Notes: generated from the sequence alone by a model not told the origin. 64,000 nucleotides of DNA from an uncultured Hormoscilla sp. (GCA_963921275.4 OZ001293.3:736001-800000); one strand, 5' to 3'. Shown: positions 7,641 through 64,000, numbered from the stretch's first letter. Made by a program: numbers and translations.

Positions 7641-7830
7641 CTTTTCTCCTACTCAAGCCTGTTTCAGATCGCCTCCCATGGTCTTGGTTATGCATCAGCT
7701 GTTGCCGTACTTCTAGTATAGTGACTATAATAGGCGACAGCTCCCAAGCAGTCCCGTAAGGCAGGGGAACGCCAAAATGGAGTCAAGTACAGCCAGTAGT
7801 TGTTTGGGTGAAGCGTAGCGGTGGGATGGC

Positions 7831-13732: not shown

Positions 13733-15507
13733 ATGCTGACTCTAGAAAATATCTACGAAATTTATGAAAGACATAAAGATGCCTTCAATGCTAGAGTTGA
13801 AGAGTTTAAACTGGGAGACAAAAGGTTTAACTTTAACGATAGAAAATCAATTTTAGGAATTGTTAATCTTTCCACAGATTCTTGGTATAAAAACAGCGTC
13901 TGTTATAATCCAGAGCAAGCTGTACGTCGTGCAATGGTACAGAAAATTCAAGGTGCAGATATCATAGACATTGGTATAGAATCTACAGTGCAAACAACAG
14001 AGAGAGTCGATGCTTTTAAACAAAACAGTAAAGTTTTGCCAGTTCTGGAAAGATTAAGTCAAGAATGTGTTTTAACTTCAGTGGAAACTTATTATCCTGA
14101 AGTTGTCAGAGAATGTTTAAAGGCTGGGGCAAATGTTATTAATTTGACAGGAGCAGAGAAAAGGGAGAAAATTTACCAAATTGTGTCTGAGTTCGATGCG
14201 GGAATTATTATGTGTTACGTGCAAGGGAAAAACGTGAGGGAGTTGGGAGACCTTAAGGTTGGAGACGATCCAATAGATTTAGTGTACGATTATTTCGCCC
14301 GAGAAGTGGAAACAGCAACTAAATTGGGTGTCCGAAAGATTTTTATCGATCCTGGAATTTGCTTTAGCTACAGCAATCTTTACACAAAAGAGGAATTCTA
14401 TTCGTTGCGTATTTGATATCAGATAACAACTCTTTTAAATAGTTTTGGATGGGGTCGAGCCGGGAATCGCTTCCCGACCCTCCCTTGAGGAACCGGACTT
14501 GCGATTTTCACCGCATCCGGCTACTGGGTACTAGGCCCTTTTCATAGGTAGACTTAATAGGAATTACTTCCGTTAGCCCTTGCCGCCTGTCTTTTCTTCC
14601 CTTTCCTGGTTTAGCGAGTGGTTGTTCTGATAACCGTTAGTATCACCATTTTCAAGTCAGTTTTACCAGTTATCCATACCTTATCCTCCACTTGCGTTTC
14701 GGATTAGTTCCGTGGCTTTTTAGGATTACTCATTCCAGCAGCTTCCTAGTATCACCGACCCACGTCAGCGCTGGCTACCCAGCATCATCTACATTACTGT
14801 AGATGTTATCCCAGGAATTACCCCGGGCATTCGCTTCTTGGGCCATCCCTCCCCCCGTGGCTTGCGCTTAACATCTAACTTGTCCTGATGGACAGCACAC
14901 GAGAGGTTACTTCGTTCCCTAACAACATTTCGCGATACCTTTAGGTCCACACTATACCCCGGGAGCTATTTGAGTACTATATTAGCCAGAGTCTAAAACT
15001 AATACTAGCTACCATTTCCTTTTTAGGCCAGCGCATATAGCCTTATTTCGCTGGTTCCTTATAACGAGGCTTGCACATGTTTGCCTGCTCTAACCTTGGA
15101 TATCTTTCCTAGCGGCGTCACCGGCTTAGGCTGCCAGTTATCCTACATTTGAGTCCTCGCTTAGCACCACGATGATGTCGCTTCGTAGCACCGAGGACCG
15201 GTGTCACCCCCGTACCTGGGGGGAGGGGAATTTAACCCCCATGCGGTCAGAGTTCCCGGCTAATGAAACCGGGCTAGCGTTCCGTGTTTGACCACGTTAG
15301 GCTAGAACGAATCGCACAGACTCAGGAGGTTAGGGTTTCCAATTTGCAACCAAGTCCCCACTGCATCGGAATGTTTTGCAGAAGAGTTCAGAAGTTCTCA
15401 AACTTTTACTGCAGTGCTGGCGATATTGGGAAAAACAGATCTTATGAGAACTCATGAAGTGCCTAAAGTTAAGGCTGTTTTGGATACTCTGAGTTTATTT
15501 GAGTAGC
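13733..15507 (+). pseudogene. folP: Dihydropteroate synthase-like gene with a nonsense codon and an antisense intron insertion
   Basis: 'GIVNLSTDS', 'IDIGIEST', 'FIDPG'; TGA at 14414-14416; removing 14447-15317 rejoins 'LLNSF|RLRRLGFPI...RTHEV...FE*'. Confidence 0.8.
14447..15317 (-). mobile_element. ORF-less group II intron, copy 1 (871 nt)
   Basis: 5' GTGCGATTCG; DV AGCCGGATGCGGTGAAAATCGCAAGTCCGGTTC; DVI ends GACCCCATCC; EBS1 AGACTC (14989-14994) is complementary to IBS1 GAGTCT; excision restores the host frame. Confidence 0.95.
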
Positions 15508-43612: not shown

Positions 43613-43714
43613 CATATTGGCTATCCCAAAAAGAGCAGTTTATGACCGTTCAGAGTATAGCAATGAGGAGAGGTGAAATGTTTCACCCCTACCTCAGCAC
43701 TTCGGATAAGCAAG

Positions 43715-44263
43715 ATGAAAATTGAGGCGACTGATATTAAGGATGTGTCGATCCTGAAACCGAAAGTCTTTGGAGACGATCGCGGATTCTTTTATGAAAG
43801 TTATAACCAGCGGGTTTTTGCGGAAAAGACTGGTTTGTCGGTGGGGTTTGTCCAGGATAATCATTCTCGTTCTGCGGAGGGGGTCTTGCGGGGGCTGCAT
43901 TATCAAATTCAACAGCCTCAAGGAAAGTTGGTGCGGGTAGTTAGGGGTGAGGTGTTCGATGTAGCGGTGGACATCAGAAAAAGCAGCCCATATTTCGGCA
44001 AGTGGGTGGGTTGCTTGTTGAGTGCTGATAATCACCGACAACTGTGGATCCCGGCGGGGTTTGCCCACGGCTTTTTGGTTGTTTCGGAAGTGGCGGAAAT
44101 GCTGTACAAGACTACTGACTATTACGCTCCTAACCACGAACGCTGTATAATCTGGAATGACCCAGATTTGGCAATTGATTGGCCCCTAGGGGGGAAAACG
44201 CCCGTACTATCGGGAAAAGATTTTGCTGGGTTACCTTTTAAGTCGGCAGAGGTTTTCCCATGA
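43715..44263 (+). CDS. rfbC: dTDP-4-dehydrorhamnose 3,5-epimerase
   Basis: 'DDRGFFYES', 'QDNHSRS..GVLRGLHYQ', 'GFAHGF'. Confidence 0.95.
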   Translation: MKIEATDIKDVSILKPKVFGDDRGFFYESYNQRVFAEKTGLSVGFVQDNHSRSAEGVLRGLHYQIQQPQGKLVRVVRGEVFDVAVDIRKSSPYFGKWVGCLLSADNHRQLWIPAGFAHGFLVVSEVAEMLYKTTDYYAPNHERCIIWNDPDLAIDWPLGGKTPVLSGKDFAGLPFKSAEVFP

Positions 44264-45144
44264 AACGGATTTTACTACTTGGGGTTAACGGTCAGTTGGG
44301 TCAAGAATTGTCTCGCACTCTCACCTCTATGGGTGATGTGACGGGAGTGGGTCGCGAAACGGTGGACTTGGAACGACCAGATGATATTCGTCGGGTGATG
44401 CAGGAGATGAAGCCGGACTTGGTGGTGAATGCTGCTGCTTATACTGCTGTAGATAAGGCGGAACAGGAACCGGAACGGGCGATCGCGATCAATGGGACGG
44501 CCTCTGGGATCCTGGCAGAGGGGGCTGTTTCTTTGGAGTCTACTCTGGTTCACATTTCGACTGACTACGTGTTTGATGGCAATTATAACTGCCCTTACCG
44601 GGAAACTGACTCTCCTAATCCTATGAATGTCTATGGTGAGTCTAAACTGAAGGGGGAGTTGGCGATTCAAGCCTCTGGTGTTAACTATATTATTCTCAGA
44701 ACTGCCTGGGTTTATGGTGCTGGTCCCACTGGCAACTTTGTCAAAACTATGCTCAGATTGGGGGCCCAACGGGATGAACTCCGCGTGGTTTACGACCAAG
44801 TTAGTAGCCCCACTTGGACTCGCCATCTCGCAGGGGCGATCGCCTCTTTAATTGCCAAAGAAGCAGCAGGGGGCATTTACCATTATACTAACAGTGGTGT
44901 TGCCAGTTGGTATGACTTTGCTGTGGCGATTTTTGCGGAGGCGAAAGAGTTAGGTTTTCCTCTGAAGGTGCAGCAGGTGATTCCCATTACTACTGCTGAA
45001 TATCCGACTCCCGCACGCCGCCCTCCTTATTCTGTCCTAAACATTGGCAAAATCTCCTCTGTTTTGGGTGGGCCTCCTCTTCATTGGCGAAATGCCCTGC
45101 GGGAAATGCTCCCCGAACTGATTTCAGTTATCAGCGATCAATGA
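44260..45144 (+). CDS. rfbD: dTDP-4-dehydrorhamnose reductase
   Basis: 'GVNGQLG', 'NAAAYTAVDKAE', 'STDYVFDG', 'YGESK'. Confidence 0.95.
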   Translation: MKRILLLGVNGQLGQELSRTLTSMGDVTGVGRETVDLERPDDIRRVMQEMKPDLVVNAAAYTAVDKAEQEPERAIAINGTASGILAEGAVSLESTLVHISTDYVFDGNYNCPYRETDSPNPMNVYGESKLKGELAIQASGVNYIILRTAWVYGAGPTGNFVKTMLRLGAQRDELRVVYDQVSSPTWTRHLAGAIASLIAKEAAGGIYHYTNSGVASWYDFAVAIFAEAKELGFPLKVQQVIPITTAEYPTPARRPPYSVLNIGKISSVLGGPPLHWRNALREMLPELISVISDQ

Positions 45145-47282: not shown

Positions 47283-47603
47283 AGGTTTGAGGAAATTGGT
47301 TCAGTTGATTGAGTGTTTTGGTTCGGATCTTTTGAACCTGTCTGCTTAATCTGAAGCTTTGCCAGGATCTCAAAGGCGAAGGCACTGGCATGAGCGGAAG
47401 ATTTTTCCTGTCGATCCCGTTCCGATTCTAAAAAATCGTCATTTTTGCCCTCAATTAAGTCGGAAATACCTCTAATCACGATAGCCTTAATATTGGGGTA
47501 GGCAAAGGCGGCGCTCAGGAAACCAAAACCTTCCATCTCAACCGCGATCGCGTCGTTATAACTTTCTCTCAGAAATTTGAAAATCTTTGACTGTTTGGAG
47601 GCA

Positions 47604-48530
47604 GTGCGATTCGTTCCGGCATAAGCCAGTAGGTGAAAGTCGGGTCTGGCTCTATCAGCCAGATAACTCTGGTTATCATGGGGGTTAAATTCCCTTTCCC
47701 CAGGTACGGGGGTCGAGGGTACTACCGGTCGGAGGTGCTACGGAGCCACATCGCCGTGGTGCCTCCCGAGGACTTAAATGTAGGATAACTGGCAGCCTAA
47801 GCCGGTGACGCCGCTAGGAAAGATGCTAATGGTTAGAACAAGCGAACCTATGTAAACCTCGTTAACCAGAACCAGCGGAAGAAGGCTTATGCGCTTGCCC
47901 AAAAAGGGAAATGGTAGTTAGTATTAGCTCTTGCCTCTGGCTAATAACGTACTCAAAGAACTCTCGGGGTATAGTAGGAACCTAAAAGCATCGCGAAATG
48001 ATACCAGGGAACGGAGTAACCTCTCGTGAGCTGTCCCCATTTGGACAAGTTAGATGTAAAGCGCAAGCCACGAAGAGGAAGGATGTCCTAAGAAGCCAAC
48101 GCCCGGGGTAATGCTTGTGGATATGCAGACGTAGGACGGATATGGTAAGACACCCTTGGGAAAAGTAACCTTAATGTCACAGAACTAGGAAGAAATTCCA
48201 AAAGTACGAATCTTGGATTCAAATCTTAGCCAGGTAAAGTTCAGAGCCCCTACGAAAAGCGGAAAGCAGAATGGGGAAGATGTTAGTAAAGAGCGGCGAG
48301 TATGGTTTGCTGAACTATCCTCCGCGAACCTTCCGCAGCTCAGTACTTAAACGGTCCAATAGGATTGACCATAAGGGGTAAAATTTCAAAGGGTAAGGGA
48401 CAACGGGGGTAACCCCCAGTAATCCTACTGATGACAACAGCTTACCAACCAGTAGCCGTGTGCGGTTCCAGTCGCTCTTCAGGTTTCGCTCTTGGAGGGT
48501 TGGGGAGTGATTCCCAGCTCGACCCCGACC
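47604..48530 (+). mobile_element. ORF-less group II intron 3 (927 nt) with a damaged DV
   Basis: 5' GTGCGATTCG; 3' GACCCCGACC; EBS1 TGCCTC (47932-47937) is complementary to IBS1 GAGGCA; excision restores 'GEKVI-ASKQSK...AVEMEG'. Confidence 0.92.
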
Positions 48531-49784
48531 ATGACTTTTTCCCCGGCGGCAATGAGAGCCACAAATACATGGGGTTGCTGGCTCGAACTGCTGAGCCGTT
48601 GCAGCCATTCCTCTTTCCGTGCTTCTGCTTTCGCTCTTTGTACCAGTGCATAGCTTGACTGTCCCAAGTCAGGTCGGGTAAAGAACTGGTCTTCGTCTCC
48701 TACTTTTCCTGCCTCATAGCCGTAAACCTTCGTCCCTACGACCACATCACCGATTGTAACGTCTTTGATTCCTCCAGCAATACCCACAAACAAGAGGATG
48801 TGAGGCTGGAAGTAGGCGATCGCCCGTTCCGCTGCCGCTGCGGCCCTCGCATTACCAGCCTCAATCTCGGCAATCCCGACCTCCCATTCCTTGCCGTTGG
48901 CGATGAATTTTCCCCGTTCGTAAACGGTTCCCCCGGGATGAACATCCTCCCGTAGCTCTTTCAAATGGGTCCGGACTGCTAAATATTCGACGGGCAGGGC
49001 AGTCACTATTATGGCACGACGTTTCAATTTTTCTGCCGTTAGAGGTACTTCATCGGGAATTGATAAACTTAGTCCGTTAATATCTAACAGGCGATCGCGT
49101 CTTGGCAACTTGCTGAATTGTTCTGTCGCACCTTCGACATCTCCAATTGTAAAATTTGCCAGACCACGAGCATAAGTAATCAATAGTGGAGCGAATTCGC
49201 ATTCTTTCAAAGGTTCGGCAAAAGTTTCTACTAATGAGGATAGGCGAAATAACTCTTTCCAATTTTTCTCTTGCAACCTCAACCGGATCTTTTCCAATAA
49301 CTTGCGACTAAGTTCCGTTGGTTGAGTATAAGCAAGAGCTGTCCAATATTGTGCTTCTGCTAAATTTTTTGTGTGACTATTTTCCCCAGCAAATTTTGCG
49401 TTACATAGTTAGTCAAAAAATCCGCTAGTTTCTCCAATTGCTTTTGACCAAAACGCTCGTCCTCTTTGAGTTCTGTTAACAGCAAGTTGCGGACAGCAAT
49501 ATCCATCTCGTAAAGCTCATACCCGACCTCACGACACAAACGAGAGAGAAGTACGCGAGCAACTGCCGTCCAAGGAGCTTGGGGTACGAAGCGAAGCCAA
49601 ATTTTGTAAAGCAGGTCAGGAGTGAGTACCAGCGGAAACGCCGCATGATAAGCTAAGTCCAGGTGTGTCCGGTCGAATTCTCCGGCAAATCCGACCACAC
49701 GCTCGATAGCAATTTCACAATCCGTTGTACTCGCTTCACTCATCATGCTTACACCGTCCACCGATCGGGACGCTCCCAATAAAC

Positions 49785-50128
49785 TTAGCGTCCTCGCAAA
49801 GTATTAATAACTGCATTCAATCCCTCGCGACTCATTTCAAACATTAGCACATTACGAGCAATATCGCCAGCAGTGGTATCCTGCCAACTATCCTCGGGCA
49901 TGGGATTGAGCCAAGCGTAATAACGGACTGACTCAGCGAGCTGATTGAGGAACTTTTGGGTGTACTCAACACGCTCTGGATTGTAGTTACCTCGTGCTGC
50001 ACCTGCATCGCTGACGATTAGGACCCCTGCTTTGTCAGCAATTGATGTCAAAACCTCTGTAACTGGCTGGGCTTTGAGGCGCGTCGGGTCACTATACAGA
50101 TATTTTTCAGGATAATTGTAGAAGTAAT
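49785..50128 (-). pseudogene. C-terminal part of a vWA-domain protein
   Basis: 'YYFYNYP', 'VLIVSDAGAARG', 'WLNPMP..SW..TTA'; 5' part lost at the IS. Confidence 0.8.
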
Positions 50129-51179
50129 AGACATCTCCAAAAATAAAACCCTTGTCAGCTCTGGGTTTTAAGCTCTACCTCCCATGCTCACATATGTTAC
50201 TCAAACGGCAGAATCAGGGTTTGATAGATTTCCTGTTAATAAAGAACTCCAAAGGTGGTACTGGTTAATCTCAAGTTTTTCAGAGCTATCAACAGATTCT
50301 AATACTTCTAAAATTCGCGCAACCAACCCAACTTTTGTCGAAATTACCGATTCATATTTATCAATATTTAACCGAAATCGCTCGCTGGCAACCCGGAAAA
50401 TTTTTACCAATGACCTGTTCAACGAAAACGGGAAGAAAAATCTCTATTTTCTTCTTTTTGTTTAGCTGTTAATTCCTGTTTTTTCGGTTTGAAAAGTTTT
50501 GAGGTTCTCCAATATAGGCTTTATCCCCTGCAAAAATTTGATCTGGATCGAAAACGACGCTCGCAAGATTTATATCGCTTGCTGGGCCTCTTTCTCCAGA
50601 TACAACATCGACAAGATCTGCACGCTTCGCTACCAGGTAAAACATTGATTTTTCAAAGTATTTCTTCTTACCTGAGTAAAACTTTTTCTGCTCTTCATAG
50701 TCTTTAGGTCTTGGTATGGCTTGCGCTATCGACTATCAACTCATATTCTGTGTTTGGATAAATATTCTTCATCTTCTCCATTTTTTTTGTTCAAGTAAAC
50801 GGCAAAGCGGAAAAGATATTGCCAATAATTAAAAATATCATTAGCTGTAGATTCACTGACGCCAAAAACTATACCTAATACTTGGAATGTTAATCCTTGA
50901 CGCAGATACATCAAAGTTAAAATTATTTGCTCTTCTACTAATAATTTAGCTTTCGCCCCCACGACGTATCAATCTAGTTTTGTGTTCTTCCACATTTTCT
51001 TTATGATTTTTATCCAACTTTTTAGCAATTGCAATAAGTTGTATTAAGTTTTTATAGCTGATACCGATGAGCCGTTTTGCTTCTTTAGGCTTGGCTTGCA
51101 AATATGTCCAGGTAATACTCGTCACAAAATTAAATTTTCAAATCTTATTATAGCATAAATTTCTATTTTGGAGATGTCT
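50129..51179 (-). mobile_element. IS5-family (ISL2-like) element, degraded
   Basis: TIRs AGACATCTCCAAAA / TTTTGGAGATGTCT; HTH 'EQIILTLMYLRQGLTFQVLG..FGVSESTA'; 'IFRVASERFRL'. Confidence 0.8.
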
Positions 51180-51524
51180 GTTTAACTTTGGAACGTTGTT
51201 CCTCATCAAAACGTGCCAGTTGAGCATCGTGGAGACGACCGACTGCATCGTCAGTGTAGAGTCCATCTCTTGCCTTAGTTGTAGACTGGATGTACCAAGG
51301 TTCATAGGGTAAAACTCGTCAGCCACCGCTTGTGCCAAGCGAGTTTTACCGCATCCAGGATCCCCCTTCAACAACAATGGACGTTTCTGTAAAAAAATAG
51401 TGAGATTCACTGCCTCAATTAATGATTCCGAAGGCAAGTAAGGCTGAAGTCCATAACGTTTGTAATCCTCTGGGGAAGGTTGCTTTGTTCCCGTATAGAC
51501 GCGAGATATTACTGAATCAACCAT
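51180..51524 (-). pseudogene. N-terminal part of a MoxR AAA+ ATPase
   Basis: 'PYLPSESLIEAVN', 'RPLLLKGDPGCGKTRLA.AVA'; shifted frame 'WYIQSTTKARDGLY.DDAVGRLHDAQL'. Confidence 0.85.
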
Positions 51525-53488
51525 TTTGCTAATTTTCCTTCCCAACTAGTGCGTGTCATCAATTAAGCCATATTACAGCTGCCGCGAGGTAGATGGCACC
51601 CAAGAAATTGCGAGCCGTTTTATCGTAGCGTGTCGCCAGAGCCCTGTATTGCTTGAGTTTTTGGAATAGATTTTCAATTAGATGCCGCCACTTGTACATT
51701 TCTTCATCGTATTCTCTGTGTTCTGTGCGGTTACTTTTTGGAGGAATGACAGCCATCCAATCCGCCTCTTTCAGGCGCTCGAGCACACGTTGTTCCGCAT
51801 CATAGGCTTTATCTGCAAGCAGCGCGCCAATCTCACCGATTTTATCCAATAGCACGTCAGCGCCTTTCCCGTCGTGGGCTTGGCCAGGGGTAAGATGAAA
51901 TCCTGTGGGATTGCCTTGGGCAATCGCAAGTGGCATGAATCTTTGTCGATAGTCCCCCTTTACTACGGCCTATGGCTTGGGTTTCGCACGTATCTGAGGG
52001 TGTTTTTTTTTGCACCCGCACGCTCGTTGATGGGCACGCAGGATGGTGGCATCAATCGCGGCGTATTCGTTATCGGCGTCTGAGGCCAAGACATCGAATA
52101 CCTGCTTCCAAACTCCCTTTTCAGACCAACGGGTATGGCGGGTATGAACAACCCGAAAATCCCCAAAACACTCCGGTAAATCCCGCCAGGGAATGCCAGC
52201 ACGATATCGATATAACACGGCAGAACACGAATAATCTATTGTTCTTGGCTGTAGCGCCTGGGTCACCCTCTTTACCAGGTAAAAGGTGTTCGATCCGTTC
52301 CCACTGGTCGTCTCGCAAGCCATAGCGTCTCATATCATGCCCTCTTGATTGTTATTGCTGGATAAGGACTCCATACCGTATCCATCTACTTCTGTCAAGC
52401 AATTTGATTGATGACACACCCTAGAACCACAGTAGTAACAAATTCTTTGATAAACAAGTTCTGGAACGCCATTTTGATACTCTCCTAGCAAAGTATCGAC
52501 CAACAAACTTTCAGGTACGACTTCTGCTGCAACTGCCATTCTCAACCATTGAGAAATATGCTTTCGTGAAAATCTGGTTGTGGGAGACAAGTGCAGAGGA
52601 ACTCTGGGGTATTCCGACTGTTCGACTTGCGAAGCCAAAGGCATTCCAGATTTACATACTTTACCCTTATTATCAACTAAAAACATCACTAAGTAAGTAT
52701 CGCTTAAGTTTACGCTCTCTACAATAGGTTGCCAAAAATGTTCGATTACCTCGGGAATAAATCCTATACAAGTACGGTGAACTTCAGTAAAGATAAAAAT
52801 CAAATGCTGATTTGTCAAGCATTCAATAACTCTAGGGATAACTTGGTCTGGGGAAAAATCATTGTGGGAACCAGTCAAGTCCCTAGCAACCGCATTCCAT
52901 AGTTCAGAAATGTCAACCGGCCATTTTAATCTTGATTTGCCGACCATTCCGCAACTCTGGTAATCGAGAGAATCGAGTAACTAAAATTTCTTGTCCAAAC
53001 TTTTCTTCGCCATGAATTAAAAATGCGGCTGTTCTCTGGAGCTATTTTTGTAATCTTAGAGCGTTTGTCACCTCCTCTTGCTGTTCGTCAAAATCGATTT
53101 CAAGAATTGAATTAAAAAGTCGCCTTTCATCATATGAATATATTGGTGATTGACATTTTTGAGGCTGGTGCTGAAGCGCTTTAATTTTAGCATGCAGATC
53201 ATCCAAGCTCTTTCGACGATCGTCACCTTCAGGACAAGCTGTTGCCAAAGCCTTCACAAAAATAGGAAATATCCAGCCATATTTTTCGTGTTTATTTTCT
53301 ATAAAACTTGGTAAGTTTAATTCAAATAAACTTTCACAATCTGATCCTTGTTTGAGTTTGAAATTTACAAAATAGAGAGCTTCATGTCCTCGACAAAATG
53401 AACGGAGCCTCTGATAACTTTCAAATTGATCGCATTTCAAAATTACCTGTCTGCATAATGCATTCAGTTCATGTGGTAGTCCTTCCAC
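51509..53488 (-). pseudogene. EAD-like domain + inactive STAND (iSTAND) protein
   Basis: In-frame TAG at 53042-53044, then 'RTAAFLIHGEEKFGQEILVTR' (degenerate P-loop); frameshift ~52920; 'EHFWQPIV', 'LVMFLVD'; tail 'CGS|SWEGKLAKWLIQ*' split by IS5. Confidence 0.78.
51547..52423 (-). mobile_element. IS5-family (IS427/IS1031-type, two-ORF) element, degraded
   Basis: TIRs GCGTGTCATCAAT / ATTGATGACACAC with CTAG on both sides; 'LRDDQWERI', 'GIPWRDLPE', 'ADKAYD', 'RHLIENLFQKLKQYRALATRYDK'. Confidence 0.88.
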
Positions 53489-53490
53489 AG

Positions 53491-55440
53491 TTAAGATCCT
53501 GAAAGATTATACTGCTCCAGCAATTGCTGGGAAACCTCCAAAGCATCCTGGTAATCTCTAACTAAATTTCGAAGTTCTTGCTCGGTCCCCACGCTGAGAC
53601 AATCCTGCAAATCAGGGGGGAATTCTTCCATCTCAAAAGCTTCGTTCGTCCTTTGCGGTCCCAACTTGGCATCTACTTCAACTTGAGTCTTACCAATAAT
53701 TTCTTTTATTTCTGGTAATAAGAACCCCCGTTGCTTGCGAGCTAATACCCGAACCTGAGTCAAAGTATAACGCCAGTCAATTGCCAGCTTGCGACGCTCT
53801 TGCTCGTTAGCAAGTTCGGCATCCAGGATTTGTTCTTTAACAGCTTCCAAGAGTTCCCACCAGGGCTCATCGCGAGCAATTTCCGGTCCCCGTCGCTTTA
53901 ATGCTAATACTTGAATGATAGCATAAGAAAAATCCGCAAGCGAACTCCCACTAATATCAGTTAGCTGTCCGTTTGCGTCTATTTTCAGTGAAGTCGGCAA
54001 AATTTCATCCCTGTGGGAGCCAACTACAACCCGGTAGCCCGCTTTCAAATCTTGGAGGTTGAGATCCATCGTGGAGGAGAAAATCTCATCTTGAGAGCCT
54101 TCACGCAGTAGAAAACTCACCAATTGCCCGACAATTTTACTCACTCTCAGAGCCACAGCCCAATCAGGTCGAAGTAGCGATACTTGAGCGACTAAACCAG
54201 TTTGTTCGAGTTGAGTCATTGGATGGGGTCGAGCCGGGAATCGCTTCCCGACCCTCCCTTGAGGAACCGGACTTGCGATTTTCACCGCATCCGGCTACTG
54301 GGTACTAGGCCCTTTTCATAGGTAGACTTAATAGGAATTACTTCCGTTAGCCCTTGCCGCCTGTCTTTTCTTCCCTTTCCTGGTTTAGCGAGTGGTTGTT
54401 CTGATAACCGTTAGTATCACCATTTTCAAGTCAGTTTTACCAGTTATCCATACCTTATCCTCCACTTGCGTTTCGGATTAGTTCCGTGGCTTTTTAGGAT
54501 TACTCATTCCAGCAGCTTCCTAGTATCACCGACCCACGTCAGCGCTGGCTACCCAGCATCATCTACATTACTGTAGATGTTATCCCAGGAATTACCCCGG
54601 GCATTCGCTTCTTGGGTCATCCCTCCCCCCGTGGCTTGCGCTTAACATCTAACTTGTCCTGATGGACAGCACACGAGAGGTTACTTCGTTCCCTAACAAC
54701 ATTTCGCGATACCTTTAGGTCCACACTATACCCCGGGAGCTATTTGAGTACTATATTAGCCAGAGTCTAAAACTAATACTAGCTACCATTTCCTTTTTAG
54801 GCCAGCGCATATAGCCTTATTTCGCTGGTTCCTTATAACGAGGCTTGCACATGTTTGCCTGCTCTAACCTTGGATATCTTTCCTAGCGGCGTCACCGGCT
54901 TAGGCTGCCAGTTATCCTACATTTGAGTCCTCGCTTAGCACCACGATGATGTCGCTTCGTAGCACCGAGGACCGGTGTCACCCCCGTACCTGGGGGGAGG
55001 GGAATTTAACCCCATGCGGTCAGAGTTCCCGGCTAATGAAACCGGGCTAGCGTTCCGTGTTTGACCACGTTAGGCTAGAACGAATCGCACAAATTCTGTA
55101 AAGGTTTATCTTGCCATACTATATATTTCAAGTTGACACGCAACCAGTCAGTAGAGCGGGCAGGCAACTAGTCAGTTAAATTGATACTGAGACCCAAGCG
55201 ACAAGCCTTATTTTTTTGCACGGAGGAGATCTTGTGGAGGCTTTGGGTCGAGTAATTTGGCTGAAAAGAGCTTTCGACTGAAGAACTAAAAGTGATAAAT
55301 CCAGGTTCAGTCAGCAAACCAGCTCTGTAGAATGCTTGGGCATCGTGCAGCCTAACTAGAAAGTAGCTGTTGTTTAAATATAGGTTGCACGGGGGGTTAG
55401 GTTGCTCTGGATAGTAAATAGAACTGACACTACTTAGCAT
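53491..55440 (-). pseudogene. Hypothetical protein of the conflict operon with a sense-strand intron and a nonsense codon
   Basis: Removing 54221-55090 joins '...DKPLQNL|MTQLEQTG...'; TAG at 55168-55170. Confidence 0.75.
54221..55090 (-). mobile_element. ORF-less group II intron, copy 2 (870 nt), near-identical to copy 1
   Basis: Same termini; I saw one substitution and one C indel versus 14447-15317. Confidence 0.95.
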
Positions 55441-55450
55441 AGTTTACTCC

Positions 55451-56615
55451 TTATGAATTTTGTGTTTCCATAATTTCACGATATAGCTCTTTCTGATTTT
55501 GTCTCAAGTCAGACAATATGGCACTGATTAGGGTAGCTTCCCGCAACTGTTCATCATCATTTTCACCATTATGCAACCCTACCACCTGCAATTATTCACT
55601 TTTAACACGGGAGCGCCGGAAGTTCCTTTGTCACTAGGAGCATTATAGAGAATGCGGTTTCGATCCGAGGCCAACTTGACAAAATATCCTTCAGAGCGCT
55701 GCTGTGGCTGCCCTTTTGGATGTTGAATCACTAGGAGCTTGGTTTGAACCGTGACAGGTTCGTCCTCCTCTAACTTCAAAAAGCCCCACTGCTTAAGCGG
55801 ACGATTCTTCCGATCCTGCAAGCGCAGTAGAGCATAGTTAGATCGGGATTATAATATTCAAGTGCATCTATTTTATATTCAACACCTTGACCGGGCAGTG
55901 CATTTTGAAAAATTAACAAGCCATTCGCAATTTGCTCTTGAAGATCGAGTTCGCTAATCGGATATTCCCGCCATTCTCTTGCTTCAATGACGTGCCAGCA
56001 AGTCAAAGCTAATTCAGGAGTTACCAACCATCCCGTGCCTCTAGGAACTTGCTTCCTGTCTCCATCGATAATTCTTGGCACGCTCACGCGAGCAACCGAA
56101 CGAGCGCAGGTTAGCAACTTTTCGTCTACCGCCAGGAAAAACATCGACTCGCCTTGGGGATTAGCTTCTCGCCCAGAAATTACAGCGGGTAACCCTTCGG
56201 GAAGAGTGTTGTCTGTTTTATTTGGTACTATGGAAAGTCTCGGTTTGCTATTAGGATTAACTGCTTGTCCCAAAGGTGCAGCAGATGAATCACTTGACAG
56301 AGCAGTGTCAAGTTCCTGGGCTAGATCCGCCAGGGTTCGATGACGACCATCTGCCGGATCTATTTGCTTGGCTAATAAGTCAACTAAAATAACTAGGGCA
56401 TTTTTCTTAGTGTCGTCACGAAATTTATCATTTAAGAAGCCGATCGCGTCTTCCACAAGTTCACTCGGACTGCCGGCTTGCCATCGATGTCGCCAAGGCC
56501 CAAGTAGAGCATGTCCCCTAAAGAAATTTCTTAATGTTTTAGCGTTTTCAAATTGGTCACAATCTAATAGGGCGTCATACAATCGAGTATAGAGTTCAGA
56601 CGTAATTCCAGCCAT
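55451..56615 (-). pseudogene. EAD-like domain + trypsin-like serine protease (two frameshifts)
   Basis: 'GTGWLV', 'LTCWHV', 'QHPKG', 'GTSGAPV', 'VVGLH'; frameshifts ~55840 and ~55595. Confidence 0.82.
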
Positions 56616-56689: not shown

Positions 56690-57614
56690 TCGGTTTTTTA
56701 AGCTGTCGCAGTATGACAGGTCAGACGGCTCCGGGATCCTCAGACAGCAGCGCCTCTATATCTGCCAGCAGAGCTTCTAGTCTTGTACGCTTATCTAGGT
56801 CGTCCCAGACTTTGATCTGCTTAACTCTTTTGGAGATACTCTCCATCCGAGATTGCAGTTATTCTCGGTCTGCCGGGAGCTGTTGGGCTTTGATTTGCTC
56901 TCGAATTTCGCGCAGGGACAGAGATTTTCGATCGCCTCCTCCAGGAGTGCCTGTCGTGCTGACTCTACCTTGAGTTTAGCAATAGCTTTAGCCTTAGTAT
57001 ACTCGATGCGACCCTGGCGGAGAGCTTCTAGGATTTCCGGGGGAAGTTTCAGCAGGGGAAGCCTGGTGCGGATAAAGGTTTGCCAGTTCATCTTGCCCAG
57101 ACTGGCAAAGACTGCTTCCACCTTCTCACGATCGGGATTAGGGGAAACGTTTCCCCTAGCATCTGGGGCTGAAGCCGTAGAGTTGTCCGCTGGAGTATCG
57201 GTGCCTTGAGACCTGGATTCCTTTTCCAGGGAGTTCTTCATCCGATACAGCAGCAACTTGACCCGATCGACAGAGCAGTTGAGCTCGATCGCCAGCAGTT
57301 GCAGAATCCCCTCAGTCTCCTCTACTGAGTTCAAATCTTGCCGCTGCAAGTTCTCCACCGTACTGCATCGCTTCCGCATCAGTCATCTCCCTCAACATCA
57401 CTGGCACTTCGGTCAGTCCCACTGCCCGAGCAGCTTTATACCGGCGCTCCCCCGCCACAACCTCATACTTATCCCCCACAGGTCGCACCAGCAAGGGCTG
57501 CAAAATGCCGTTTGACTTGATACTGGCGATCAATTGCTCCATGGCTTCTTCATCAAAATAGCGCCGGGGTTGGCGAGCAGGAGGCAAAAGCTGGTCGAGC
57601 TCGATTGACTGCAC
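56690..57614 (-). pseudogene. parB: ParB-family partition protein, frameshifted
   Basis: 'QPRRYFD', 'GILQPLLVRP', 'AGERRYKA', 'ENLQRQDLN.VEE'. Confidence 0.85.
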
Positions 57615-58973: not shown

Positions 58974-59801
58974 ATTAGGGGTCTCCCTGGGAATAGCTTC
59001 GGAACCCTCCCGTTCGGAACCGGACTTGTGATTTTCACCACATCCGGCTACTGGGTAGTAGGGCCTTGTCATTGGTAGAATTACTAGGGATTACTCCCGT
59101 TGTTCCTTGTCTCATGCTATTTCACTCATCTACTGGTTTCTAGCCAGCCATCCATTCCTCATCATTATTGCTAATGAAGGGCTCATAACGTTTTTAGAGC
59201 TACTTTTACCCGAGACATCCTGCTATCACCGACCGACGTCTGCATATCCTAAGCATTCCCCGGCGTCTTCCGCATGCTCTTGTCCTGAAGGACTCGGCAT
59301 GCGGAAGACACCGCCTAGGCATTAGCTTCTTAGGCCATCTTTCCCACCTGCGGCATACGCTTCACATCTGACTGGTCCTTTCGGACAGCTCGCAAGGGGT
59401 TACTTCGTTCCCTGGTCTCCGGAGCGCGATACCTTTAGGTTCCTACTCTACCCCGGTAGCTTTTCGAGTACGATGTTAGTTACGAGCGACAACTAACACT
59501 AGCTACGTTGACTTTTGTCTCCGGTGTATACAGCCTTATTTCACCGGTTCTACATAACGAGGCTTACATAAGTTCGTTTATTCTAACCTTGGGTATCTAA
59601 CAAGCGCGGTGTCACCAGCTATGGCTGCCAGCTATCCTACATTTAAGTCCTCGCTGAGCACCAATGGTGATGTTACTCCACAGCACCTCACGCGGTTACC
59701 CCCGTACTTGGGGAGAGGGAATTTAACCCCATGAATACCAGAGTTCCTAGTTTCCTAGGCTAGCGTTCCGTATTACTACGTTAGGCTAGAACGAATCGCA
59801 A
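58974..59801 (-). mobile_element. ORF-less group II intron 4 (828 nt), UUGCG start, inserted in a MITE end
   Basis: 5' TTGCGATTCG; DV AGCCGGATGTGGTGAAAATCACAAGTCCGGTTC; 3' GACCCCTAAT; EBS1 CGCTCG (59483-59488) pairs with IBS1 TGAGCG; joined exons match the empty site at 10799-10821. Confidence 0.92.
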
Positions 59802-60172: not shown

Positions 60173-61911
60173 CGGGTAGTCTTTAAGTTGCAAAAGCGAA
60201 TTTACAGAGCGGCAATGGAAGGCGTAATAAGCGAACGGTTCGCAGACTCCAAAGATTACTGGTAAAATCCCGGGCAGCCAAAAGTCTAGCGGTACGACAG
60301 GTTACACAAGACAACCAGGGAAGGAAAACTGCCGGTGTGGATGGTGTTAAAGCACTGACCCCAAAGCAGCGCTTAGAACTGGTAGGACAGATTGAAATCT
60401 CAAACAAGGCCAAGCCTACACGTCGTGTATGGATACCCAAGCCAGGGAGAGAGGAAAAACGTCCTTTAGGAATACCAACGATGTACGACCGTGCGACACA
60501 AGGACTCCTCAAGACTGCGCTAGAACCCGAATGGGAAGCGTACATGGAAGGGAACTCCTACGGGTTCAGACCGGGAAGGGGATGCCACGATGCAATCGAG
60601 GCAATATACAGTAGCATCAAACAAAAACCCAAGTGGGTACTGGATGCAGACATTGCAAAATGCTTCGATAAGATAAACCACAAGGCGCTACTAGAAAAAC
60701 TGAATACAATATCACCAATCCGTAAGCAAATACGGGCATGGTTAAAAGCCGGGGTGATGGACAAAGGGGAATGGCATGCAACTGAAGCGGGAACGCCCCA
60801 AGGGGGTGTCATATCACCGCTACTAGCCAACATAGCCTTACATGGGTTAGAGGAGGCAGTAATGAAGCTCGCCAAGCCAACAAAGAACGAAAGAAAAAAG
60901 CTGACAGTAGTCAGATATGCAGATGACTTTGTAGTCATGCACGAGAACAGAGTGATAGTGGAAAAAGCGCAGATAGTGGTCGCAGAGTGGCTAAAAGGAA
61001 TCGGGTTAGAACTGAAAGCCGAAAAAACAAAAATAGCTCATACGCTAAAGGGGGAAAACCCGGGGTTTGACTTTCTGGGTTTCAACATCAGGCAATATGA
61101 GGTGAGTAAATACAGGACCGGCAAGTCAACACACGGAACACCCCTAGGATTCAAAACCCTAATAAAACCCAGTAATAAGTCCATAGGGAAGCATAAAGAA
61201 CGGTTATCAGAAATGGTGGCCAGCCATAAAGCAGCACCACAAACAGCCTTGATAAGTGGGGTAAACCCGATAATACGGGGATGGTCAAACTACTACAGGG
61301 CGGTGGTGAGTAAGGAAACTTACAGCTACATGGACCACTACCTATGGACCATTCTCTGGCAGTGGGCAAAAAGGAGACATCCCAATAAATCCAGTCATTG
61401 GATAGCTCGTAAGTACTGGTCCCTAAGTGAGGACGGTAAATGGCGATTCCGATGCAAGATAGGAAAAGATGAGATAACGCTGCGCAAACACTCCGAAACT
61501 GAGATAATCAGGCACGTAAAAGTGAAAGGTACAGCCAGCCCATATGACGGGAACCTTACATATTGGAGCGCAAGACTAGGTAAAAGCCCCGAGTTGAGTA
61601 AGAGGGTAGCAACGCTACTCAAGAGACAAAAGGGGAAATGCCAACACTGTGGACTAACGTTTATGAACTGTGACAAATGGGAAGTTGACCATATCAAGCC
61701 CCTCTCATTAGTCTCATTAGGGGGTAAGGACCGGTACGACAACCTACAGTTACTACACAAGCATTGCCACGATATAAAGACTGCCAACGATGGTAGCAAA
61801 CGTAGCCGTACCTATGACAAGGGTGGCGTTGCTGAGGAGCCGGATGATGCGAAAGTATCAAGTCCGGTTCTGAAGACTAGCAGGAGTGGTGACACTCTTG
61901 CTTAGTTTAAT
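60173..61911 (+). mobile_element. ltrA: 5'-truncated group II intron with an RT/maturase/HNH ORF (60337-61905)
   Basis: 'RPLGIP', 'GTPQGGVISPLLAN', YADD, 'IIRGWSNYY', HNH; DV/DVI end AGTTTAAT at 61911; frameshift ~60224; DI-III absent. Confidence 0.9.
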
Positions 61912-64000
61912 TCCGACCCACCTAATGAAAGTGGTTTAATATGGTCAACTTCCCACTTGTCACTATTTGTGAACGTTAGTCCTAATTCTCGGCAGTTACC
62001 TTTCTGCATCTTCATGCGCTTCGCAACTCGTGTTCCCACATCTGGGCTCTTACCGAGTCTTGTACTCCAGTAAACGAGCTCACCGTTATATGGGCTTACA
62101 TCACCTTTTACTTTGACATGTCTTACTATCTCTACACTACTGTGCTTCAACAGCTCAACTTCCTTACTTTCATCTTTCGATCTGAACAGCCATTGACCAT
62201 CCTTGTCTATTGACCAGTCATTCTTGGCCATCCATTCTCCAGACTTATTCGGGTGTCGTCTTTTCGCCCATCTCCACAAAACCTTCCACAAGTAATCGTC
62301 CAGATCACTATACGTTTCCTTGCTCACTCCTGTTCTGAAGTAATTAGCCCATCCACGTATCAGAGGATTCAGCTTCATTATCAGCTCCTCCTGAGACTTT
62401 CTGTCATCTATCTCTTTCTGATGACTTTCCTTGTGCTAAAGAACGGATTTCTCACTCAGCTTGATTAGTGTTTTGAATCCTAGGATCTTCCCTTTACACC
62501 TTCCAGACTTGTTCTTGACTACCTGATATTGTCTCACATTGAATCCCAGGAAATCAAATCCCGCGTCTTCTGCGTGTAACCTATGAGCAATCCTAGTCTT
62601 CTCAGGCTTAAGTTCAAGTCCTATTCCTCTCAGCCATTCAGCTATAACCTTCTGCGCCTTCTCCACCACTTCCCGACTTTTATGTATGACTACAAAGTCA
62701 TGTATCTGACCACAGTCAACTCTGTCTTTTTTCGTTCAGGCACCAGAGTCATAACTTTTTCCTCTAGTCCATGCAGAGCAACGTTTGCCAGCAATGGTGA
62801 AATCACTCCTCCTTGTGGTGTACCTTCATTCGTTGCACACCAATTCCTCCCATCTATCACACCAGCAGTCAGCCAAGCGCGTATTTGTCTACGAAAGATA
62901 GATGAAGTATTCACTTTTGTCAACAGCGCTTCATGGCCTATCTTATCGAAGCATTTAGCTATGTCAGCATCAAGAACCCATTTAGCTTTCTTGTTGATCG
63001 CTGAGCATATTGCTTCGATTGCATCATGACATCCTCGACCTGACCTAAATCCATAGGAATTACCTTCTTTCCTTAGCTTCCCATTCTGGTTCTAATGCCT
63101 GTTTCAGTAATCCCTGTAGTGCGCGGTCGTACATCACCGGTATTCCCAATGGACGTAACTCTTTCCTACCTGGTTTAGGTATCCAAACCCTTCGAGTCGG
63201 CTTAACCTTCTTCCAAGTCTTAAGTTGTCCTACCAGTTCGAGACGCTCGTTAGGTTTCAGCTCTTTTATACCGTCTACCCCAGCCGTCTTCTTTCCCTGG
63301 TTATCTTGTGTTACTCGTCGTACCGCTAGACAGTTGGCAGACCAAGACTTCACTAATAGCCTCTGGAGTTTGCGAACTTTCCGCTTATTACCTTCCTGAG
63401 TCGCTCTGTAAATCCGCTTTTGCAAAAGACTAACCGCTCCAATTTTGGCCACGGTAGATCTTTCCATTCATACATCGGCTTTCCCGTGTTCATAACGTTT
63501 TCACTGCTACAAGTAGCTTCACATTTGACATCATTGTGAGGGCGTCAGCGTATCCATACCTATTACAGGTAGGCTTTTGCTTCTCCACGAAATCCTTCCC
63601 GGCTATGACCTGGCATATGTAACCAGATGTTGCGTCTTTGGTGACTACCAGATGTGATCGACCTCTAGATCTGGAGTACATAACCGGTTTACTTCGTTCC
63701 TACAGATGATTGATCATGACCTTAGATGGATTCTATGTACCGGGTTTATTGTCGGTGCTTGTTAGTCGGCCTACGATCCACTAACGACCTCTATCCTTTC
63801 CCTTTTGGGCCAGTGTTTCAGCCTTATTACACTGGTTGTGTGTGACGACACTGCAAATCTTCGCTTCATGCTCACCATAGTCACTTGCTCGAATGTATCC
63901 ATGAGTCCTATAACTTGCTGCGAACCTTGCCCCTAGATGACTTCGATGTGGTGTTTATCTTTCACTGCTTCCATCAGTTTCCCTCGGAAGTCCGACGGAT
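61912..64000 (-). mobile_element. Degraded RT-encoding group II intron (5' end beyond the window, 3' end cut by the + strand intron)
   Basis: RT pieces 61912-63467 with frameshifts; YADD broken ('VVRYMTL'); GGAACGAAGTAAAC near 63690. Confidence 0.85.

Follow-up and report, generated by a model that had tools for sequence, protein, structure and literature searches.

Probable bDLD1 pair in the remains of a MoxR-vWA-iSTAND conflict system of an uncultured Hormoscilla sp.

Results

Gene content and state of the locus

The window analysed here, a stretch of 64,000 nucleotides from an uncultured Hormoscilla sp. (GCA_963921275.4 OZ001293.3:736001-800000), contains on its minus strand, in this order, genes for bDLD1-trypsin, gene X, bDLD1-iSTAND, MoxR, vWA and vWA-L-PNPase. 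The components of a ternary system (iSTAND, AAA_5, VWA_CoxE and PNP_UDP_1) follow the expected order as remnants. None is intact; the damage includes frameshifts and two TAG codons, insertions of IS elements and introns, and a deletion. The labels trypsin and iSTAND of the initial annotation agree with Pfam matches above the cut-off (Trypsin_2 and PF19995). The broken state of both genes had escaped it.

The trypsin-like serine peptidase pseudogene (55451..56615, minus strand) runs through three frames (56615-55839, 55839-55591 and 55591-55454) and then reaches a stop; a tblastn search with the 391-aa homolog P0003 places residues 1-258, 259-342 and 344-386 in these separate frames. The first frameshift falls in the codon of the catalytic Asp (DLDYALLRL in the homolog); both the LTCWHV motif of the His and the GTSGAP motif of the Ser are retained, and the His-Asp-Ser triad is spread over more than one reading frame. 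The Trypsin_2 match (PF13365, 30.5 bits vs a cut-off of 27.6) comes from the middle piece, ORF 55579-55821. The N-terminal domain, an effector-type (E-type) bDLD1 (56301..56615, minus strand) recognised by BLASTP, HMM and hhalign, is unbroken, and ORF 55776-56615 (minus strand), which includes it, begins with the previously reported peptide MAGITSELYTRLYDALLDCDQFENAKTLRNFFRGH.

Gene X, encoding a conserved protein of about 359 aa, lies between the trypsin and iSTAND genes. Its exon 1 (55091..55440, minus strand; residues 1-117; tblastn identity 79% to P0039 and 78% to P0044) has an in-frame TAG at 55168-55170, opposite a Trp of the homologs in the tblastn alignment, and exon 2 (53491..54220, minus strand; residues 118-359) shows 86% identity to P0039 over 242 residues (tblastn). 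A group II intron without an ORF (54221..55090, minus strand) separates codons 117 and 118; its 5' end is GTGCG at 55090, and its domain V/VI matches Rfam RF00029 at 54223-54299 (44.4 bits, cut-off 40). The 3' end was placed at 54221, which would give an in-frame, homolog-like exon junction (QNL/MTQ). A second copy of this intron, 99.8% identical, is located at 14445-15318.

The main part of the bDLD1-iSTAND pseudogene (52425..53488, minus strand) was delimited by tblastn searches with P0020, P0022 and the iSTAND protein of locus L003, and occupies two frames. It starts with the iSTAND-type (S-type) bDLD1 (53174..53488, minus strand; PF20689); translation of ORF 53042-53488 (minus strand) from the GTG codon at 53488 gives (M)EGLPHELNALCRQVILKCDQFESYQRLRSFCRGH, the second peptide reported earlier. 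An in-frame TAG at 53042-53044 closes this ORF ahead of the iSTAND part, a frameshift is situated somewhere in 52916-52938 (tblastn), and the iSTAND domain itself (PF19995, 35 bits vs a cut-off of 24) is found in ORF 52330-52947. The pseudogene is 63-64% identical to intact iSTAND proteins. Its 3' end is severed by an IS5-family element (51550..52420, minus strand), in which Pfam recognises a DUF4096 ORF (51970-52323) and a DDE_Tnp_1 ORF (51559-51936); the inverted repeats occupy 51546-51566 and 52404-52424 and a CTAG duplication flanks the element. The insertion lies within the final 13 iSTAND codons, where MoxR begins, and these 13 residues were recovered by tblastn beyond the IS at 51512-51550. 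Recoding of TAG was considered for the two stop codons and set aside in favour of nonsense mutations: one TAG replaces a conserved Trp, the other a variable position, and a tRNA search of the window found none.

The MoxR AAA+ ATPase remnant (51172..51545, minus strand) comprises residues 1-126 of about 313 and has a frameshift near 51313; tblastn shows 83% and 79% identity to the MoxR of locus L003, and AAA_5 is matched at 22.9 bits (cut-off 22). The next ORF, 50741-50962, encodes a transposase (HTH_Tnp_4). Of the CoxE-like vWA protein, only residues 294-420 of about 421 are left (49752..50132, minus strand; 79% identity to the vWA of L003; VWA_CoxE 17.4 bits, under the cut-off), and a deletion across the two genes has taken about 190 MoxR and 293 vWA residues. 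The last remnant (47348..49779, minus strand), a vWA-L linker fused to a nucleoside phosphorylase effector (PNP_UDP_1, 58.9 bits), was traced by tblastn with L003:13199-14896, L001:13220-15586 and L002:9598-10836; it has a frameshift near 49430, and an insertion containing a diverged group II intron-like repeat in the opposite orientation (47681-48123, 81.6%) interrupts the PNPase between 48509 and 47620. A third bDLD1 copy on this remnant, as in L002, was sought and was absent from a six-frame scan. Every gene of the system is a pseudogene here, and the domain pair is a fossil.

Similarity of the two N-terminal domains

The proposal of the initial annotation that both genes share an N-terminal domain of about 100 aa is clearly borne out. 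The two N-termini have the motif CDQFE-x4-LR-x-F-x-RGH in common, and BLASTP of the trypsin-side against the iSTAND-side ORF gave 33/100 identities (E 1e-9). Cross-searches agreed: an HMM built from trypsin-type copies of other genomes found the iSTAND N-terminus of the window (E 3e-11, profile positions 2-103), and an HMM of iSTAND-type copies from other genomes found the trypsin N-terminus (E 1.8e-9, positions 1-102). Elsewhere in the 64-kb window, translated in six frames, neither HMM scored better than E 0.97. Comparison of 13 iSTAND-type with 15 effector-type domain slices by hhalign gave a probability of 99.4% (E 5.8e-22, 104 columns).

Assignment to bDLD1/EAD3

The iSTAND-borne copy confidently matches the Pfam model PF20689, with 29.8 bits for the 148-aa ORF and 30.9 bits for the 105-aa slice (curated cut-off 25 bits); the trypsin-borne copy remains under that cut-off, with 14 bits for the ORF and 16.6 bits (E 0.0097) for the slice. 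All slices from relatives match PF20689 at E ≤ 0.01, both effector-type (15/15, best 5.1e-20) and iSTAND-type (13/13), and the precomputed annotation assigns the model to 18/18 iSTAND homologs and 10/18 non-self full-length trypsin homologs. Other EADs, EAD8 (PF19961) in particular, follow the same architectural logic as bDLD1, and profile comparison of bDLD1 with EAD8 has given p-values of 3.8e-6 to 8.7e-6 (PMC8195603, supplementary file 7); three of the 15 E-type slices match EAD8 weakly (best E 0.0037), but bDLD1 outscores it for 28/28 slices.

The description of the domain as an unnamed, new candidate EAD must therefore be withdrawn: it is PF20689, matched above the cut-off by the iSTAND copy and at E ≤ 0.01 by 28/28 slices from relatives, and such a match removes the novelty by the initial annotation's own reasoning. 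According to the parts of the publications considered here, bDLD1/EAD3 was named and placed at the iSTAND N-terminus by Kaur, Burroughs, Iyer and Aravind in 2020 (PMC7159879), and the adjoining bDLD1-iSTAND and bDLD1-trypsin genes, with a homotypic Death-like adaptor model, were presented by Kaur et al. in 2020 (PMC7159879) and 2021 (PMC8195603). The domain, its name, the Pfam model and the two-gene arrangement are thus already in print.

Related loci and the two bDLD1 lineages

A scan of genome contigs, covering genomes other than that of the window, provided 12 related loci. Ten of them, from cyanobacteria and Chloroflexota, contain a bDLD1-iSTAND gene, and in each of the ten one or more additional bDLD1 genes are present; in nine, an E-type copy is placed directly upstream or is parted from the iSTAND gene by gene X alone. 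Some loci have up to three or four bDLD1 genes. The EAD architecture, with a core copy and an effector copy on adjacent genes, is found in the window and in its relatives. The six loci scanned with Pfam have MoxR and vWA downstream and trypsin, Metallophos, TIR or PNP as partner effectors, and a caspase is a further bDLD1 partner (P0014).

A tree of 60 domains places a single branch between the 29 effector-borne and the 31 iSTAND-borne copies (support 84/71), and this branch recurs in 87% of 200 bootstrap trees; support is 100/100 for the cyanobacterial S clade and 100/99 for the core E clade, and the copies do not cluster by genome. Judging from these sequences, effector-borne and iSTAND-borne bDLD1 are two old, separate lineages with about 30% identity. 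The two copies of the present locus are 33% identical, against 53-63% to their orthologs; since locus-mates are not closest relatives, the term "homotypic" is valid only at the family level. In locus L005, a 916-aa protein in the effector position carries an S-type copy.

Gene X

Gene X is present in 3/3 trypsin loci and 0/9 others among the 12 related loci, and in only 3/10 of those having bDLD1-iSTAND. No Pfam domain is annotated on its relatives (0/54 non-self homologs), and an ESM Atlas search returned unnamed clusters only. Pfam includes models of Trypco1 and Trypco2; 50 gene X homologs compared with Pfam at E ≤ 1 gave no convincing match, these models included, which distinguishes gene X from both. 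Trypco1 and Trypco2 are trypsin-co-occurring proteins of ternary systems, as described in the considered part of Kaur et al. 2020 (PMC7159879), and gene X resembles them in adjoining a trypsin-like peptidase gene and in being confined to trypsin-version loci. Modelling suggests a C2-like β-sandwich with a helical tail. A gasdermin-like substrate was considered and rejected: Foldseek led to C2 domains (E about 3e-4, TM by target 0.37-0.48), with no gasdermin among the 50 matches listed. Kinship with the conserved N-module of longer effector proteins was likewise discarded (hhalign probability 0.2%); that module itself gave 0/9 convincing matches in Pfam. In PADLOC, gene X, iSTAND, the N-module and vWA-L found no matching model, and the search returned generic protease/phosphoesterase matches only.

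Predicted fold and binding of bDLD1

AlphaFold2 modelling of the iSTAND-borne copy predicted a small all-α domain of about six helices (6-16, 25-33, 36-42, 51-64, 73-84 and 90-107) with a mean pLDDT of 84.9 and block means of 92-97 across residues 11-100. Foldseek comparison of the model with the PDB gave a best E of 0.42, the 50 matches listed including no chain of the Death, CARD, DED or Pyrin type, and profile searches of PDB sequences found no Death-superfamily chain. The published link between bDLD1 and CARD is itself weak (p 6.5e-4 against PDB_CARD by profile-profile comparison, in the part of PMC8195603, supplementary file 7, considered here).

Prediction of the E:S complex gave a score of 0.48 (runs 0.67, 0.48 and 0.29), while the best of three controls scored 0.00; agreement between the runs extends to at least 93% of contacts, with a partner pLDDT of at least 88. 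Among solved complexes, 116 of 157 attain the mark applied to such scores, and among mismatched pairs 2 of 215; passing scores of 0.60 or below come from just 18 of these 157 and from both passing mismatches. All these counts hold roughly, own alignments having been used. The proposed heterodimer thus passes weakly, and the models lend some slight support to E:S binding. A literature search found no experiment on bDLD1 binding.

Discussion

The two N-termini are very probably paralogous copies of bDLD1, of about 105 residues, the adaptor of a "ternary" conflict system (MoxR-vWA-iSTAND) that belongs to multicellular cyanobacteria and is dead in this genome. In an intact system, iSTAND would sense the invader and oligomerise. 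Its bDLD1 would then bind the bDLD1 of the peptidase and concentrate the latter, much as the Apaf-1 CARD does with the caspase-9 CARD. With MoxR-vWA acting as a threshold switch, the activated trypsin might cleave components of the system, e.g., the vWA-L-linked effector. This scheme is drawn from the architecture of intact relatives and from the parts of Kaur et al. considered here. The adaptor reading of the initial annotation accordingly holds as far as an EAD is present on the iSTAND core and on the neighbouring trypsin, in line with the published model; recruitment in this genome does not hold, since the two genes that carry the domain are pseudogenes, like all others of the system, and nothing is left to be recruited.

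Perhaps the bDLD1 copies do not bind one another and each docks on a common third partner, co-occurrence reflecting a shared hub; this seems unlikely to us. Candidates would be the gene X product, the conserved N-module of relatives or a signal in the form of a nucleic acid or nucleotide. The long separation of the E and S lineages, at about 30% identity, is unlike a self-associating surface kept identical and would suit such a hub, but animal CARD-CARD and DD-DD pairs are also built from diverged paralogs. The three or four bDLD1 genes of some loci and the weak pass of the complex score also favour a hub, against which stand the 0.00 scores of all three controls and the distribution of gene X, which with 3/10 loci is not a general hub. 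A joint reading, put forward tentatively and with more doubt than confidence, takes the bDLD1 contact as heterotypic, a fixed pairing of E with S that is swapped only rarely (L005), and gene X as a third trypsin-co-occurring component, perhaps a substrate or latch of the peptidase. Neither the E/S subtype split nor gene X is named in the considered parts of PMC7159879 and PMC8195603, and the neighbourhood tables of PMC7159879 may already list gene X.

It is very improbable that the genes are intact and functional and that faulty sequencing or assembly produced the frameshifts and stops. Such errors commonly take the form of single-base frameshifts, and the domain-coding stretches themselves are clean; however, two lesions are base substitutions producing in-frame TAG codons, copies of a group II intron have been inserted, as has an IS with its inverted repeats and with CTAG duplicated on either side, and about 190 MoxR and 293 vWA residues are missing. 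Positions 1-45 kb of the window hold many long intact ORFs (400-1031 aa), so the breaks are local and not an artefact of sequence quality. A recent duplication or gene conversion of neighbours, with no adaptor function conserved across genomes, would suit two copies 3 kb apart on the same strand but is refuted by the 60-domain tree, with its E/S split and lack of grouping by genome, and by the pairing in 10/10 bDLD1-iSTAND loci of cyanobacteria and Chloroflexota, and we give it practically no credence.

As a discovery, the locus is of limited importance, the system being published and the window copy wrecked. It is a clean example of the decay of a conflict system in a filamentous cyanobacterium, where IS elements, ORF-less group II introns, nonsense codons and frameshifts have acted within about 10 kb. 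The E/S lineage split indicates to those testing the adaptor model which pairs to co-express, and gene X, unnamed, well conserved and linked to the trypsin version, would be worth testing in cleavage assays.

Comparison with known systems

In animals, the CARDs of Apaf-1 and caspase-9 serve as an adaptor that brings a peptidase to an oligomerised STAND-type scaffold. The bDLD1 pair resembles the Death-superfamily adaptors in that a six-helix domain of about 100 residues is present on both a STAND-type scaffold and a peptidase, and, by analogy, recruitment of the peptidase to an oligomerised scaffold may be supposed here. It differs in that neither Foldseek (50 matches listed) nor the profile searches led to a solved Death, CARD, DED or PYD chain, in the inactive NTPase of the iSTAND scaffold and in the peptidase, which is trypsin-like and not a caspase.

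The closest counterparts are the bDLD1/EAD3 MoxR-vWA-iSTAND systems, as far as the considered parts of the publications describe them (PMC7159879, PMC8195603). The window shares with them the domain family, its placement at the iSTAND N-terminus, the second copy on an adjacent trypsin and the downstream MoxR and vWA followed by vWA-L with an effector. Unlike those systems, all genes of the window are pseudogenes, the trypsin copy taken alone is under the Pfam cut-off, and the bDLD1-bearing gene pair is parted by the conserved gene X.

Identity of the shared N-terminal domain

The first ORFs of the trypsin gene (279 aa, 55776–56615, minus strand) and of the iSTAND gene (148 aa, GTG start, 53042–53488, minus strand) start with the first and the second peptide quoted in the initial annotation, respectively, and both contain the motif CDQFE-x4-LR-x-F-x-RGH. 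A BLASTP comparison indicated 33% identity over residues 1–98 of both ORFs (E 1e-9). Domain HMMs made solely from relatives in other genomes cross-matched the two N-termini over the whole of about 105 positions, the trypsin-type HMM finding the iSTAND copy (E 3e-11) and the iSTAND-type HMM the trypsin copy (E 1.8e-9); searches of the six-frame translation with both HMMs revealed no further match in the window better than E 0.97. A profile–profile comparison of 13 iSTAND-type and 15 effector-type slices yielded a probability of 99.4% (E 5.8e-22, 104 columns). These comparisons confirm the claimed N-terminal domain common to the trypsin and iSTAND genes, with a sequence similarity judged to be far above chance.

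The iSTAND-borne copy belongs to PF20689, "Bacterial Death-like domain 1" (bDLD1; 29.8 bits, Pfam cut-off 25), and its 105-aa slice scored 30.9 bits. The trypsin-borne copy by itself scored 14 to 16.6 bits, under the cut-off of 25, but its membership is supported despite the low score, since its relatives match PF20689: bDLD1 was found at E ≤ 0.01 in 15/15 effector-type and 13/13 iSTAND-type slices of related loci, and precomputed PF20689 assignments are present on 10 of the 18 non-self trypsin homologs, as well as, together with PF19995, on 18/18 full-length iSTAND homologs. According to passages of Kaur et al. 2020 (PMC7159879), in which bDLD1/EAD3 is introduced, some iSTAND proteins carry this domain N-terminally. 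The supposedly unnamed effector-associated domain is therefore a named and published one, given the PF20689 matches and the same role proposed in the Kaur et al. passages; the adaptor interpretation was right in kind, but its novelty is gone. The domain pair is bDLD1/EAD3 of an already known system, decayed in this genome.

Gene content and decay of the locus

The genes around the domain pair form a MoxR-vWA-iSTAND ternary system. On the minus strand, the iSTAND domain downstream of the bDLD1 ORF (PF19995, 35 bits) is followed by remnants of MoxR AAA+ (51545–51172) and CoxE-type vWA (50132–49752), and by the vWA-L linker joined to a PNP_UDP_1 nucleoside phosphorylase (49779–47348). Every gene of the system is broken here. 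The trypsin gene lies in three frames, to which residues 1–258, 259–342 and 344–386 of a 391-aa homolog map separately; the first frameshift falls at the catalytic Asp codon, and the His and Ser motifs are kept. The iSTAND gene contains an in-frame TAG (53042–53044), shifts frame somewhere from 52916 to 52938, and has its last 13 codons severed by an IS5-family element, whose inverted repeats are 21 nt long and which has CTAG at either side. MoxR (about 313 residues when complete) has been reduced to 126 residues and vWA (about 421) to 127, with a second transposase ORF between the remnants; the PNPase gene has a frameshift and is interrupted by an insertion with a diverged intron-like repeat in opposite orientation. 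The damage represents local decay and not poor sequence, because many intact ORFs of 400–1031 aa lie in the window's first 45 kb.

Two different IS elements are located within 2 kb: the IS5-family element at 51550–52420 (DUF4096 and DDE_Tnp_1 ORFs, CTAG flanks) and another at about 50200–51170. The latter contains an HTH_Tnp_4 ORF and lies where most of MoxR and vWA is missing. A ParB-like gene (56795–57614, minus strand) immediately precedes the trypsin gene and is also frameshifted, judging by its split into two overlapping ORFs (ParB_N, HTH_ParB). Just past the decayed locus, intact rmlC and rmlD (dTDP-4-dehydrorhamnose 3,5-epimerase and reductase; 43673–45144, plus strand) mark the return to normal gene density.

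Gene X and group II introns

A whole gene that the initial annotation did not mention, here called gene X, lies between the trypsin and iSTAND genes, inside the interval 53170–56615. Its non-self homologs number 54, are about 359 aa long and reach 86% identity; none (0/54) has a Pfam domain, and scanning 50 of them gave no convincing Pfam match at E ≤ 1 (0/50). Several of these homologs come from contigs equal in length to those of trypsin and iSTAND homologs. In the window a conserved Trp of gene X is replaced by an in-frame TAG, and codons 117 and 118 are parted by an 870-nt ORF-less group II intron (Rfam domain V/VI, 44.4 bits); if the intron ended 3' at 54221, the exons would be joined in frame again (QNL|MTQ). 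The AlphaFold2 model of the product (mean pLDDT 78.8) contains a beta-sandwich interrupted by helices and a helical tail; in a Foldseek search it came closest to C2 domains (TM by target 0.37–0.48, E about 3e-4), a predicted likeness to be taken as a lead.

The ORF-less introns form a family with copies at 54221–55090 (minus), 14445–15318 (minus), 47681–48123 (plus sense) and 58978–59800 (minus). Two copies, one of them in gene X, are 99.8% identical over 874 bases; diverged relics (82% and 75–82%) are found in the PNPase remnant, where the relic is antisense, and near 59 kb. Another group II intron (domain V/VI, 55 bits) contains an intact 522-aa RT-maturase-HNH ORF, a possible source of trans-acting maturase for the ORF-less copies, and abuts fragments of a further intron RT (GIIM, RVT_N) on the opposite strand; together they occupy 60337–61911 (plus strand) and 61902–63467 (minus strand).

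Related loci and the bDLD1 tree

A scan using one genome per species revealed 12 related loci, L001–L012 (10 cyanobacteria and 2 Chloroflexota), of which 10 contain a bDLD1-iSTAND gene; the exceptions are L006, truncated or broken, and L012, where the domain is missing. At least one additional bDLD1 gene is present in 10/10 bDLD1-iSTAND loci. Effector domains are named for the six loci scanned with Pfam (L001, L002, L003, L004, L008, L010); L005, L007, L009 and L011 were covered by our own HMMs only. Among the six, the partner is trypsin in L001, L008 and L003 (split there), calcineurin-like phosphoesterase in L002 and L004, and TIR in L010, with an additional bDLD1-PNPase in L002; MoxR, vWA and then large vWA-L effector proteins follow downstream. 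Gene X is present in L001, L003 and L008, the three trypsin-domain loci of the 12. The window is not alone in showing decay of the trypsin gene: in Microseira wollei NIES-4236 (L003) the N-module-bDLD1-trypsin gene has come apart into ORFs 6473–8203 and 8249–8902.

The N-module, a highly conserved N-terminal part (390–480 aa, mean column identity 64%), is found on bDLD1-effector proteins in 9/12 related loci (L001:5693–7132, L002:311–1486, L003:6473–7750, L004:7194–8369, L005:7116–8444, L007:7208–8380, L008:6521–7780, L009:8007–9218 and L011:7101–8276). It showed no Pfam family and no likeness to gene X, and is missing from the window and from the 354–391-aa trypsin homologs. A further unusual bDLD1 carrier, P0014, is a caspase (PF00656) with a C-terminal effector-type bDLD1 75% identical to the window copy.

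A tree of 60 bDLD1 domains was built after dropping the window-identical copy and rows with fewer than 70 matched profile positions. On this tree a single change accounts for the effector-type copies (29) and a single change for the iSTAND-type copies (31), with support of 84/71 and agreement of 87% of 200 bootstrap trees; support is 100/100 for the cyanobacterial iSTAND clade and 100/99 for the core effector clade. The two copies within a locus are thus placed by sequence as not each other's nearest kin, a point that also qualifies the published reading. Two off-type carriers have iSTAND-type copies: the 916-aa effector-position protein of L005 (7116–9866, plus strand), in place of an effector-type copy, and a 203-aa protein of L001 (9371–9982, plus strand), which also contains a piece resembling the C-terminal part of gene X.

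Predicted interaction and comparison with known systems

The iSTAND-borne copy was confidently modelled with six helices (mean pLDDT 84.9). The 50 matches listed by a Foldseek search of the bDLD1 model against the PDB (best E 0.42) included no chain of the Death, CARD, DED or Pyrin type, and profile searches of PDB sequences found no Death-superfamily chain. The Death-like fold was not recovered, which qualifies the published reading, where supplementary file 7 of Kaur et al. 2021 (PMC8195603) gives p 6.5e-4 for bDLD1 versus CARD.

The present study establishes to which family the domain belongs, its paired occurrence and the order of the genes, and provides the six-helix model. The architecture and passages of both Kaur et al. 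papers suggest that, in intact relatives, iSTAND would sense an invader and assemble, its bDLD1 would capture that of the peptidase, and the trypsin, activated by proximity, might process system components under the MoxR-vWA switch. Complex prediction for the two window domains gave a score of 0.48 (runs 0.67, 0.48 and 0.29), the best of three controls being 0.00; at least 93% of contacts are common to the runs, and the partner's pLDDT is 88 or higher. The score mark was reached by 116/157 solved complexes and 2/215 mismatched pairs and, at 0.60 or under, by 18/157 solved complexes and both passing mismatches, counts that apply roughly because our own alignments were used. The heterodimer prediction, proposed earlier as a check, thus exceeded its controls, but points weakly to a complex of the trypsin-borne and iSTAND-borne bDLD1. 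The literature searched, including passages of PMC12839542, yielded no experimental test of bDLD1.

Gene X gave no convincing match to a Trypco1 or Trypco2 profile (50 homologs, E ≤ 1), but resembles these families, as described in passages of Kaur et al. 2020 (PMC7159879), in its position and in co-occurring with trypsin. The bDLD1 contact, if real, would be one between diverged paralogs, the same as in animal CARD pairs.
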